DNA of 64,000 nucleotides from an uncultured Bacteroidota bacterium (GTDB lineage Bacteria; Bacteroidota; Bacteroidia; Chitinophagales; Chitinophagaceae), in contig CAIYTT010000014.1 of the NCBI GenBank assembly GCA_903929195.1, positions 245 through 64,244 of the forward strand. Direction: 5' to 3'. Positions 20,613 to 27,680 of this stretch are shown here, one piece after another. Every line of letters begins with the position of its first letter. Position 1 is the stretch's first letter. The notes under the pieces are model-generated. The model had not been told where the DNA came from. It made no database searches and saw only the letters and a list, made by a program, of their open reading frames with translations. A program made the position numbers and the translations under genes.

Positions 20613-20804
20613 CATATTTACGCCTTTGTTGGTGTTTTCACCAACAAATAGTTTGCCCCCCCCGATGACGAGTACAATCCATACTAACTATGATATGTTG
20701 TTTGTTGATGAAAACACCAACAAAGGCAATGTAAGATAAAAAACATAACTATCTTGTGTTATGCTGTTGTTTGTTGGTGAAAACACCAACAAAGGCACAA
20801 ATGG
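20613..20804 (+). repeat. triple-palindrome element, copy A (MITE-like)
   Basis: Three copies of GCC+TTTGTTGGTGTTTTCACCAACAAA: 20622-20648 (+), 20701-20727 (inverted, one mismatch) and 20770-20796 (inverted). A conserved core GATGACGAGTACAATCC lies between the first two copies. A C8 tract sits at 20656-20663. Confidence 0.85.
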
Positions 20805-24755: not shown

Positions 24756-25559
24756 ATGGCATTTATTATACCAATGATGATTTTAGCCTATTCTTTTTGC
24801 AATGTTACCTTAATGCCTATCAGAAGCGAACCCTCGCATAAAGCTGAACAAATTAGCCAATTATTATATGGAGAAAGAGCTGAAATACAACATGTAAACA
24901 GTAATGAATGGGCTAAAATAAAATGTGCAAACGATGGTTATGAGGGTTGGTGTAAAGTTGCCCAATTAACCATAATAACTTACAAAGAATACAAAAAAAC
25001 AATTAAATATATTTCAAATTCTAATTTTAATTCATTATTGTTAAATAATTACAAACTTTACTTGCCTTTAGGTTGTGAGCTTACCTATTTAAAAAAATTG
25101 AATGCTGAATTTAAAATAATTAAATTTAAAGGCAAAAAGACAGATATAACAAAAACAATATTTAAAATTGAGGATGTTATAAATGCTGCATCTAATTACA
25201 TGAATGCACCTTATCAATGGGGCGGCAAAAGTGTTGTGGGTATCGATTGTTCGGGATTAACACAAATGGCTTATAAATTATGTAATTATTTATTGCCACG
25301 AGATGCAAGCCAGCAAGCTAATGTTGGTATTTTAGTAGATTTTCTGCAAAATAGCACTTGTGGTGATTTAGCTTTTTTTGATGATAAAGACGGCAAAATT
25401 ATTCATGTTGGCATACTTATAGATAACCAAACAATTTTACATGCAAGCGATACCGCAGGCAAAGTAACAATAGATAAAATAGACCAAGGTGGCATTATTA
25501 GCACAAAACAAAAAAAGAGAACACATAAGTTAAGATTCGTAAAAAGAATATTTAATTGA
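24756..25559 (+). CDS. C40 (NlpC/P60) peptidase with an N-terminal SH3b-like domain
   Basis: 'CNVTLMPIRSEPSHKAEQISQLLYGE' is SH3b-like. 'GIDCSGLTQMAYK' holds the catalytic Cys and 'HVGILID' the His. A TATCTTTA box at 24747-24754 suggests the true start may be the ATG at 24774. Confidence 0.8.
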   Translation: MAFIIPMMILAYSFCNVTLMPIRSEPSHKAEQISQLLYGERAEIQHVNSNEWAKIKCANDGYEGWCKVAQLTIITYKEYKKTIKYISNSNFNSLLLNNYKLYLPLGCELTYLKKLNAEFKIIKFKGKKTDITKTIFKIEDVINAASNYMNAPYQWGGKSVVGIDCSGLTQMAYKLCNYLLPRDASQQANVGILVDFLQNSTCGDLAFFDDKDGKIIHVGILIDNQTILHASDTAGKVTIDKIDQGGIISTKQKKRTHKLRFVKRIFN

Positions 25560-25564
25560 ATCTA

Positions 25565-25623
25565 TTCTTACTTACCAATTCCCAGTAGGAAAAGCAGGAA
25601 GAACTTGCTATTGCAAAATTCTA
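25565..25623 (+). repeat. 97-bp repeat family, degenerate partial copy (DR0)
   Basis: 'attcttacttaccaattcccagtaggaaaagcaggaagaac...aattcta' aligns with the 3' half of DR1 and DR2. Confidence 0.5.
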
Positions 25624-26112
25624 CAAACCCCGATGATGTTTTGTAATTTGCCAAGGCATTATAAAATAATATCACCCGTATTGAAACAACCCACTGTTAC
25701 TAAAAATTTATTTGGGCAGTTTATTTTTTGTAGTTTATTGATAATGAGGTACTTGTAAAAATAAAACTGCTCATTAATTGCCCGTTTGTGTTTCATAGTG
25801 AGTTATTTTTTTTTGTTGCGTTATTGGGTTTGGGTGTAAGGTATTTTATTTTGGAGTAGCGTTTTAAAGTTTAATTGTACCTATTTAAGGTTGGTTATGG
25901 GGTATTTGTGTTGTTGGGCATAGGTTTGAGGGTGAGTGTTTTTGTGTGATTTTAGTTTAACTCCAATTCCTTTTAATCAATTACAACGCCCAACTTTAGC
26001 GAAATATGGGGTTAAACGGCAGCGGATGCTACAAGATTTTAGGTCGAAGATAGAACCTTTGACCAATTTGGTCTCCTAAACCATCCGGAACTAAAAGAGG
26101 GTTGTAACCTTT

Positions 26113-26185
26113 GCTGGTAAACATTCTTCTGGATTTTCCTCCGGGAATCCGGAAGTGAGAATGAACTCCTCCGAACGTATTTACC
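26113..26185 (-). repeat. 97-bp repeat family, inverted diverged copy (DRinv)
   Basis: Its reverse complement aligns with DR1/DR2 ('aatacgttc', 'cttcc.gattccc.g.ggaaaatc.agaagaa'). The hairpin at 26126-26155 is CTTCTGGATT / AATCCGGAAG. Confidence 0.6.
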
Positions 26186-26227
26186 TTAACAAAGCTTAAT
26201 GCAAGTAATGAAATTCTTAGCTATATA

Positions 26228-26324
26228 CCTTTTCATTTAACATCGGTTCTTTGAATACGTTCATAGAACGGCTTTATTTATTCTTCCTGATTCCCTGCGG
26301 AAAATCAGGAAGAACGGGAATTCT
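26228..26324 (+). repeat. 97-bp repeat family, copy DR1
   Basis: About 94% identical (6 differences by eye) to 27402-27498. It contains the hairpin CGTTCATAGAACG and a 10-bp stem, CTTCCTGATT (26283-26292) / AATCAGGAAG (26303-26312). It abuts the stop codon of the 26325..26981 gene. Confidence 0.85.
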
Positions 26325-26981
26325 CTACTTTACAATGTAATAACTTTGTAATTCCCAAACTCTACGCTTTATTGAGTCTAAAGGTTTATTTAGTATCATT
26401 TTTATAAATCCCACATCTGCATTAAAATAAAATGTATCTATATAAGGTGTTACATAAAAATATTTTCTTTCTACATGGCTTATTTCAGCAACATTCGTAT
26501 AATCATGTCCATTTTGCGTATATGTACCTATTATATTTAGTACAAACCCGGAATCGTGTATTGATTCAATTGGATTTATATTACCAATATTAAAAGGATA
26601 ATAAGAAAATATTTCATCTTTATTTATAACGCTAATATAGATTTCGTTACTAAAAAAAATCAGACTCCAATCTACAGAATCTAAATGATTTGCTTTAGAA
26701 CTATAATTTTTAATTCCCATTTCAATTTGTTCATAATTGTTAGAAGTAGAACCGTGTCCTGTTGATGCTGTTCCCATTGCATCATGATTATTGCTATTAT
26801 AAACATAAAAAGTATCAATTTTTCCACTTAAATCATCTCTCATAATCCAATAAGTACCATCTTTCCAATAAAATGCTGCTTTTAATGCTGCATTTACAGG
26901 TGTAAAAGTACTTTTTTGTTGTTGGCATTTTGTTAACAATAATATAACAAACGCACTTAATAAAAGTATTGTGTATTTCAT
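26325..26981 (-). CDS. hypothetical secreted/lipoprotein
   Basis: Signal peptide with a lipobox-like 'LLLTKC'. Coding-like composition over 218 aa. I recognise no family. Confidence 0.5.
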   Translation of the reverse strand: MKYTILLLSAFVILLLTKCQQQKSTFTPVNAALKAAFYWKDGTYWIMRDDLSGKIDTFYVYNSNNHDAMGTASTGHGSTSNNYEQIEMGIKNYSSKANHLDSVDWSLIFFSNEIYISVINKDEIFSYYPFNIGNINPIESIHDSGFVLNIIGTYTQNGHDYTNVAEISHVERKYFYVTPYIDTFYFNADVGFIKMILNKPLDSIKRRVWELQSYYIVK

Positions 26982-27085
26982 AAACTTTTTATTTTTGGGT
27001 TAATTTATCTAACATTGCACTCAATTTATCATTTTGCTTTTGTTGTTGTATAGCGTAAAAAGGAAGCTCTTCAATTTTTTGCAGC

Positions 27086-27276
27086 AGTTTTGTGCCTTTG
27101 TTGGTGTTTTCACCGACAAACAACATCATAATCCAAAATAGCTAAGTTTTTTATCTTTACATTCTCTTTGTTGGTGTTTTCATAAACAAAAACTTATTAT
27201 AATTAAAATGGATTATACTCGTCATCGGAAGAACAAACTATTTGTTGGTGAAAACACCAACAAAGGCGTAATAGTA
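27086..27276 (-). repeat. triple-palindrome element, copy B (inverted relative to copy A)
   Basis: Palindromes at 27094-27120, 27164-27190 (degenerate) and 27241-27267. The reverse complement of copy A aligns along the whole length at roughly 85% by eye, including the core GGATT(A/G)TACTCGTCATCGG. Confidence 0.85.
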
Positions 27277-27401
27277 GTTAAAGAGCTAAGTATAATTAAG
27301 TAAAAAAAGAGTTTTTTCATTATTTAATAATTCTTAAATAAAATTAACGAATTATTTTTAAAAAAATAGAGTGTTATTAAAAATTTAATATTGGGGGTCT
27401 A

Positions 27402-27498
27402 TCTTTTCATTTAGCCTAAGTTCTTTGAATACGTTCATAGAACGGCTTTATTTATACTTCCTGATTCCCTGCGGAAAATCAGGAAGAACGGGAATTCT
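27402..27498 (+). repeat. 97-bp repeat family, copy DR2
   Basis: Direct repeat of 26228-26324. Hairpin arms lie at 27457-27466 and 27477-27486. Confidence 0.85.
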
Positions 27499-27627: not shown

Positions 27628-27680
27628 AAAAATAATTTCGCCGTAGGGATTTATCTATCCACTACGGCGAAATTATTTTT
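27628..27680 (-). terminator. rho-independent (bidirectional) terminator of the 1635-aa adhesin gene
   Basis: 19-bp stem AAAAATAATTTCGCCGTAG / CTACGGCGAAATTATTTTT with a 15-nt loop. T-runs lie on both strands. It sits 58 nt after the stop at 27738. Confidence 0.75.

Follow-up and report, generated by a model that had tools for sequence, protein, structure and literature searches.

Hairpin repeats of an uncultured Chitinophagaceae bacterium as probable arms of a REP/REPIN-like DNA element family associated with a subclass 2.6 RAYT

Several copies of a hairpin-bearing repeat are found between positions 25558 and 27498 of C14:245-64244, a stretch of 64,000 nucleotides (nt; hereafter, the window) from the genome of an uncultured Chitinophagaceae bacterium near Flavipsychrobacter. 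This genome is a metagenome-assembled one (4.19 Mb in 244 contigs, with 32.6% G+C). The repeats are very probably the arms of a non-autonomous DNA element family resembling repetitive extragenic palindromes (REPs) and REPINs, and belonging to a REP-associated tyrosine transposase (RAYT), an enzyme of the Y1 HUH type and of subclass 2.6 (group 5). The original prediction, made from the window alone, had presented them as a local family selected as a structured RNA. What has been found instead is a selfish DNA element of the REP/REPIN type and not a new RNA gene. It falls in an already described but poorly characterised class, the atypical REP-like structures of Bacteroidota RAYTs, to which this family is newly added.

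The family was defined by an iterated nhmmer search of the whole assembly, using a profile built from the two direct repeats of the window (DR1 and DR2), and comprises 173 arms, each of about 100 nt, distributed over 121 loci. With this genome-wide count of copies, the description of the repeats as local does not hold. From the outer end inward, an arm consists of a conserved foot (CCCGTTC), a 10-bp hairpin whose loop is conserved (TTCCGCAGGG), a short linker rich in A and T, another hairpin (about 5 bp) and about 40 nt of conserved inner sequence. When the foot is read as GAACGGG, its A is invariant (147 of 147), its G is present in 130 and its C in 118. At the outer edge, conservation ends sharply behind GAACGGG, with no target motif detected in the flanking DNA. 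The arms are extragenic in 95% of cases, as they overlap by less than 10% with open reading frames (ORFs) of at least 90 amino acids (aa), vs. a crude coding fraction of 84%. In addition, the distance to a contig end is 400 nt or less at 24 of the 121 loci, an indication that the repeats break the assembly.

Many of these arms are arranged as inverted doublets. In total, 43 arm pairs are oriented (-,+), with a hairpin at both outer ends and with termini that read CCCGTTCTTCCGGATTTTCCGCAGGGAATCCGGAAG... and its reverse complement. Total doublet length has two modes, about 200 and about 257 nt, and doublets of the second size contain an additional 62 nt at their centre. Two arm types, A and B, have been distinguished, and 27 of the 28 typed doublets pair one A arm with one B arm. 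Furthermore, the doublets align to both ends of a unit present on contig C224, in which an A-type arm (C224:1597-1691, minus strand, 88.4 bits) and a B-type arm (C224:2256-2356, plus strand, 89.5 bits) bracket a transposase gene. Therefore, the doublets resemble this gene unit after loss of its middle part. The 62 nt at the centre of the longer doublets were not found in the C224 unit.

The gene within the C224 unit corresponds to one of the two Pfam Y1_Tnp matches of the genome (C224:1919-2179, minus strand). It extends over C224:1679-2206 (minus strand) as a frame of 176 codons, uninterrupted except for one TAG, and is the only copy of the cognate RAYT gene in this genome. The arms around it are in inverted orientation, with B at its 5' side and A at its 3' side. 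Read through the TAG, the protein scores 107.9 bits on the NCBIfam model NF047646 (REP_Tyr_transpos, REP-associated tyrosine transposase; cut-off of 80), and contains the motifs SNHLHLI, FWQAGNH, and DYLHQNPV (that is, NHLH, WQ, and YLHQNP). Judged by these motifs, its length and its Bacteroidota host, the predicted product fits a Y1 HUH RAYT of subclass 2.6 (group 5). The link between gene and repeats is also visible in word counts, since ATTCCCTGCGGAAAAT, which with 44 copies ranks first among the 16-mers of the genome, corresponds to the hairpin loop and is present on either side of the RAYT gene. Over-representation of RAYT-flanking 16-mers is the criterion of Bertels and colleagues for RAYT-associated repeats.

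Within the window, the four copies originally described are all present, two by alignment and two recovered by the iterated profile, and the stem sequences given for DR1, DR2 and the inverted copy agree with the DNA. DR1 and DR2 are indeed direct repeats (26226-26324 and 27400-27498), with 94% identity over 99 nt. As a family member, DR1 is a B-type arm at 26216-26318 on the plus strand (model positions 1-103) that gives the best nhmmer match of the genome (97.2 bits) and shares 90% identity with the B arm next to the C224 RAYT gene. Its main stem is formed by CTTCCTGATT (26283-26292) and AATCAGGAAG (26303-26312), its conserved foot GAACGGG is at 26312-26318, and the repeat unit exceeds this hairpin, because the arm of about 100 nt also carries a second small one (CGTTC-ATA-GAACG in DR1). 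DR2 is a lone B-type arm at 27394-27492 (plus strand, 91.6 bits), which shares with DR1 the arrangement CTTCCTGATT-N10-AATCAGGAAG, with stems at 27457-27466 and 27477-27486 followed by the foot GAACGGG. The inverted copy is an A-type arm at 26122-26207 on the minus strand (63.5 bits, model positions 13-101), with the stem CTTCTGGATT (26126-26135) and AATCCGGAAG (26146-26155). In alignment it corresponds to the end of the C224 unit that bears the A arm, and its outer end, ...CATTC, is a degenerate CCCGTTC. This arm and DR1 are the left and right halves of an inverted doublet of about 200 nt (spanning about 26119-26318), with 8 nt between them. Finally, the degenerate partial copy is a decayed lone fragment of the hairpin module at 25558-25604 (plus strand, model positions 55-100), which was recovered in a contig search at a looser threshold (20.0 bits, E 2.4e-5) and sits right behind the stop codon of an NlpC/P60 gene (24756-25559). 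An exact-protein look-up of this gene for other assemblies of the locus returned no record.

All copies had been thought to keep the hairpin, and this is the case for DR1 and DR2, whose hairpins as single strands beat shuffled sequences on both strands (fold z of -3.9 and -4.6 for DR1, and of -3.3 and -4.0 for DR2). The inverted copy folds weakly, with a marginal z of about -2, and the fragment (25558-25612) has lost the hairpin, its stem being unpaired (z of -0.98 and -0.31).

The proposal that the structure itself is selected has been borne out by the whole family. Among 126 distinct arms, 85.7% of the cells of the 10-bp stem are Watson-Crick pairs, vs. 75.3 ± 0.65% (maximum 77.3%) when the 3' partners are shuffled (1000 shuffles) and 17-40% when the partner is slid by 1-3 columns. 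Over all 133 arms, from two to four kinds of Watson-Crick pair are found at four of the ten stem positions. For example, pair 18/37 is GC in 45 arms, TA in 36 and AT in 8, and pair 17/38 is CG in 85, TA in 16, GC in 5 and AT in 3; pair 22/33 is found as TA (87) or GC (26), and pair 13/42 as CG (112) or GC (8). Further compensation has been found in the RAYT-flanking hairpins of other genera (see below). Pairing above that of the shuffles, together with these alternative Watson-Crick forms, means that the hairpin structure is maintained, at least among the copies that multiplied.

The conclusion that had been drawn from this covariation, namely that an RNA is read from one particular strand and represents an unrecognised family, is a different matter. 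According to this explanation, the repeats would be small structured RNAs or cis-acting elements of 3' untranslated regions (3' UTRs), with the hairpin selected as RNA on one strand. Besides the covariation, it can draw on the position of DR1, whose end lies 6 nt away from the TAG stop codon (26325-26327) of a minus-strand ORF of 218 aa, so that co-transcription is probable and DR1 would fall within the 3' UTR of this ORF if transcription runs on. Moreover, 27 of 93 loci lie between convergent genes, vs. 16% of all intergenic regions, and an effect of REPs on mRNA stability is known from enterobacteria (Di Nocera et al., 2013; PMC3733652). Nevertheless, this explanation is very improbable. The strand had been chosen from a single wobble pair in the window, a choice that has to be rejected because, in the family, G·T or T·G mismatches (41) and A·C or C·A mismatches (33) are about equally frequent, neither strand being favoured; that pair is consequently without strand information. 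The hairpin folds equally well on both strands and no U-tract follows it. Lone arms beside genes point both ways alike, with ratios of 32:32 downstream and 22:19 upstream. A known RNA family was also rejected, as a covariance-model search of the whole window against Rfam, one of the checks suggested at the outset, gave nothing at the gathering score and, at E up to 10, noise below threshold. Finally, the inverted doublets and the arms flanking the RAYT gene are explained at the DNA level, and point to a hairpin recognised in single-stranded DNA.

Relatives in other genomes support the association of the hairpin with the RAYT gene. The repeat itself is restricted to the genus, being abundant only in this genome and in one sister species (G002), which has the same doublet architecture and at least 36 arms. 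A third species of the genus gives two weak matches; the fourth species gave none, nor did 27 genera elsewhere in the order. Homologues of the RAYT with no more than 62% identity are widespread, having been detected in 23 of 31 related genomes and in 40 of 201 genomes of the family Chitinophagaceae (E <= 1e-45). A database search retrieved 2,518 proteins at E <= 1e-20, the best being 74% identical; the top homologues are mostly of 175-176 aa, and some are named "REP element-mobilizing transposase RayT". In other genera, inverted repeats bracket the RAYT gene at 22 of 34 homologous loci, and nearly all of these 22 repeat sets contain a hairpin of 10-14 bp, in many cases with a second one behind it. 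The first hairpin of the closer clade reads GTTC-NNN-GATG, a loop resembling TTCCGCAGGG, and CATC-NNN-GAAC, and the middle of the stem varies by lineage and is always compensated (CCG/CGG, CCT/AGG, CAG/CTG, CCA/TGG, and GAC/GTC). Intact RAYTs of 176 aa that are 71-74% identical to that of C224 have been found on independent metagenome contigs, and their flanking arms match the family model at 41-52 bits. Matching arms at homologous RAYT genes, with compensated stems, indicate that gene and hairpin travel and change together.

Another question is whether the family is active at present, and here several observations weigh against the RAYT-dependent mobile family proposed above. The cognate RAYT carries a premature TAG (C224:1889-1891) and, in G002, the RAYT of this type is a C-terminal remnant of 33 codons joined to an arm, despite the at least 36 arms of that genome. 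No intact cognate enzyme has been found in either genome, although both assemblies are fragmented (244 and about 490 contigs). The arms comprise 116 distinct hairpins among 133, together with numerous decayed lone arms and fragments with broken stems, and this diversity is more in keeping with a population that is old or decaying than with one that is active. An empty-site search, in which the flanks of 20 element-bearing regions of G002 were mapped to this genome, yielded no locus with both flanks on one contig. Closer comparison revealed filled sites common to the two genomes and breaks of synteny at the edges of elements, but no clean filled-versus-empty pair, so that mobility is inferred by homology. 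Compared by sequence with solved structures, the protein gives weak matches only, to Escherichia coli TnpA-REP (4ER8, E 0.023) and to IS200-type transposases. Lastly, the family departs from canonical REPs in two respects: the 5' GT[AG]G is lacking, the foot being CCCGTTC, and the arm is conserved over about 100 nt with two hairpins, vs. 20-40 nt for a REP.

The comparison of the two species provides some indications about the age of the family. Two filled sites are orthologous in both (L104 with C21:13694, and L109 with C50:46765), and therefore a part of the arm population predates the species split. At five loci (L104, L105, L107, L109, and L113), the nucleotide homology between this genome and G002 (88-98%) breaks off precisely where the element has its outer edge, at CCCGTTC or CTCGTTC. 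This pinpoints the terminus, and indicates that the elements lie at borders of variable or rearranged DNA. Taken together, the data suggest an arm population that is old and possibly inactive now. The current activity of the family is doubtful, because the cognate RAYT contains a stop codon and the sister species keeps only a remnant of the gene. Fragmentation of the assemblies, or action in trans by an intact RAYT encoded on contig C74, could alter this picture.

These same observations are the ones that speak for an immobile fossil, that is, for repeats kept because the host uses the hairpins as protectors of mRNA 3' ends or as protein-binding or recombination sites, the selection on the stems being host-driven. 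Dozens of arms persist in both species with a broken RAYT in one and a remnant in the other, some loci are orthologous, and interspecies homology ends at the element edge at several loci. Such an origin of the stem selection is very unlikely, since the many decayed or lone fragments with broken stems are what is expected without host selection, no rule of orientation or position relative to genes has emerged, and the covariation can come from a few master copies, upkeep in place being unnecessary. Barely credible is a classical miniature inverted-repeat transposable element (MITE), an internally deleted insertion sequence (IS) that has terminal inverted repeats and depends on a DDE transposase for its movement: its size (200-257 nt), long terminal inverted repeats, non-coding nature and many copies at contig ends, as with dispersed repeats, would be in order, but direct repeats of 2-8 nt flanking 31 doublets are no more frequent than chance (i.e., no target-site duplication, on which ground the DDE-type MITE was rejected), the sole gene found between arms encodes a Y1 HUH transposase, and the termini are hairpins with a conserved foot, like those of Y1 systems.

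For the REP/REPIN-like family of a RAYT, a mechanism can be proposed by homology with E. coli TnpA-REP and IS608 TnpA. Recognition of hairpins in single-stranded DNA by Y1 enzymes, with cleavage and joining through a tyrosine, is established, as the relevant parts of two publications state (PMC6006769; PMC3733652). By analogy, the RAYT would bind the folded hairpin and the foot where the DNA is single-stranded, as it is at the replication fork, would cleave at or beside the foot and join the ends by means of its catalytic tyrosine, and the element would be copied or moved without target-site duplication. If the folded hairpin is what the enzyme recognises, this would explain stems that remain paired by compensatory change next to a constant loop and foot. 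The scattered doublets of about 200 nt would be the C224 RAYT unit minus its gene, and lone arms and fragments would be products of decay.

More tentatively, and with the odds somewhat against it, the family may represent a distinct, undescribed architecture of subclass 2.6, with two-hairpin arms of about 100 nt and a GTTC foot. The enzyme would read the base of the stem (GTTC/GAAC), its top (GATG/CATC or GATT/AATC) and the loop while the middle drifts; the multiplying unit would be the gene unit minus its middle (one A and one B arm); and the populations would outlive their transposase. In this architecture the elements would also drive rearrangements, as suggested by their location at the exact edges of interspecies differences.

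Other genes of the Y1 type have been observed in this genome. A second RAYT gene, on contig C74 (C74:2720-3274), is intact. Its product of 184 aa reaches 85.4 bits on the NF047646 model, and it shares 47% identity with the C224 gene. Inverted hairpins of its own lie on either side (GGCGTTTTTAACGCC and TCGTTTGCAACGAGGA), and their motifs have 16-35 matches (exact or one-pattern, both strands counted). A third, more distant Y1-like ORF of 207 aa (HFHLL, YYIHANP) is situated at C14:65748-66360, about 1.5 kb past the end of the window, among repeated GATATGACATATC palindromes. As for the surroundings of the C224 RAYT, an NHL-repeat gene (C224:115-1449) adjoins it, and another (L124:8495-9802) adjoins its 71%-identical intact homologue on a metagenome contig. 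The former ORF was called NHL-repeat from its sequence alone, and the latter has Pfam matches to NHL/TEN_NHL and Por_Secre_tail; this shared neighbour hints at a conserved chromosomal position.

The window contains other features in the vicinity of the arms. The ORF of 218 aa next to DR1 (26325-26981, minus strand) lies outside the element, and is without a Pfam match and with a lipoprotein-like N-terminus. At 25677-25966 there is a second dispersed repeat of about 265 nt, with 18 copies in the genome, sharp boundaries and a strongly conserved core (TTGATAATGAGGTACTTGTAAAAATAAAA ... GGGTGTAAGGTATT ... TTTTGTGTGATTTTAGTTT). For seven of its 18 copies, an arm of the RAYT family is no more than 160 nt away, and the copy in the window has no match in Rfam. 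A triple-palindrome element built from TTTGTTGGTGAAAACACCAACAAAGGC is present at 27094-27267 and also at 20613-20804; its 16-mers are the second most abundant of the genome (32 copies), which makes it another genome-wide family of hairpin repeats. Finally, a perfect 19-bp inverted repeat (AAAAATAATTTCGCCGTAG / CTACGGCGAAATTATTTTT) with A/T runs on either side, at 27628-27680, looks like a bidirectional terminator 3' of the gene for a protein of 1635 aa with immunoglobulin-like repeats, of the type IX secretion system (T9SS).

The identification of this family is of significance for several reasons. It removes a candidate for a new RNA family, and it explains the heavy fragmentation of this assembly, in view of the loci found near contig ends. 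REP/RAYT biology is known almost wholly from Proteobacteria, and in the passages of the 2018 survey of RAYTs that concern it (PMC6006769) the Bacteroidota class is described only as having "atypical secondary structures". The locus and its relatives give a definition, in sequence and structure (foot, two hairpins, and loop), for work on the specificity of subclass 2.6 RAYTs and for repeat annotation. Furthermore, the two sister species, one with a broken transposase and the other with a remnant, could be a natural case of the decay of a REPIN-like population after loss of the enzyme.

Comparison with known systems places the family as follows. With the REP/REPIN-RAYT systems or REPtrons of Proteobacteria (Nunvar, 2010; Bertels and Rainey, 2011, PMC3116915; Ton-Hoang, 2012) it shares a RAYT-class Y1 HUH gene in the genome with repeats inverted around it, extragenic high-copy hairpin repeats arranged as inverted doublets, gene-flanking 16-mers that are the most abundant of the genome, restriction to a lineage and absence of target duplications. 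In contrast to REPINs, the doublets measure 200-257 nt and nearly always join a 5'-side and a 3'-side arm instead of two like REPs, and, unlike in REPtrons, an in-frame stop codon breaks the cognate RAYT gene. The resemblance to IS200/IS605 elements (IS608, ISDra2) lies in the Y1 HUH chemistry, the subterminal hairpins in single-stranded DNA and the lack of target duplication. However, the ends of the family are inverted repeats of each other, which is not the case in IS200/IS605, and it is the gene-less derivative that has multiplied and not the cognate gene. An IS200/IS605 copy was rejected on account of the single cognate gene and of a score of the C224 protein below the cut-off on the NCBIfam IS200 model NF033573 (32 vs. 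55 bits). Another related system is that of the TIRtrons and their TIRYT transposases, for which the sections of Di Nocera et al. (2013) on these elements were the source. As described there, a tyrosine transposase gene lies within long terminal inverted repeats, some of them self-complementary, and the moderately abundant families occur as singles, dimers or groups, as the present one does; the arm ends of this family lack the GGGGWSAS motif that several TIRtrons have in common. Those same sections attribute no TIRtron to Bacteroidetes. The closest correspondence is with RAYT subclass 2.6 of Quentin et al. (2018), equivalent to group 5 of Bertels et al. (2017). In the passages of that survey devoted to it, this subclass is characterised by NH[LIV]H, WQ, and YIH[QN]NP motifs, a length of about 179 aa and a mostly Bacteroidetes distribution, and its genes by atypical flanking secondary structures that lack GT[AG]G and have copies elsewhere in the genome. 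The C224 gene, with its NHLH, WQ, and YLHQNP motifs, 176 codons, Bacteroidota host and atypical flanking structures with copies elsewhere, agrees with this description, except that the second position of the tyrosine motif is L and not I. The structures of the subclass had been found by manual inspection, and those passages give no anatomy for them; the anatomy of the arm, the copy number, the doublet architecture, the covariation and the recurrent GTTC foot go beyond that account. Therefore, the family shows the functional hallmarks of REP/REPIN-RAYT systems, differs from them in the GT[AG]G motif and in the length of the unit, and is in accordance with both the atypical structures of subclass 2.6 and the TIRtron organisation.

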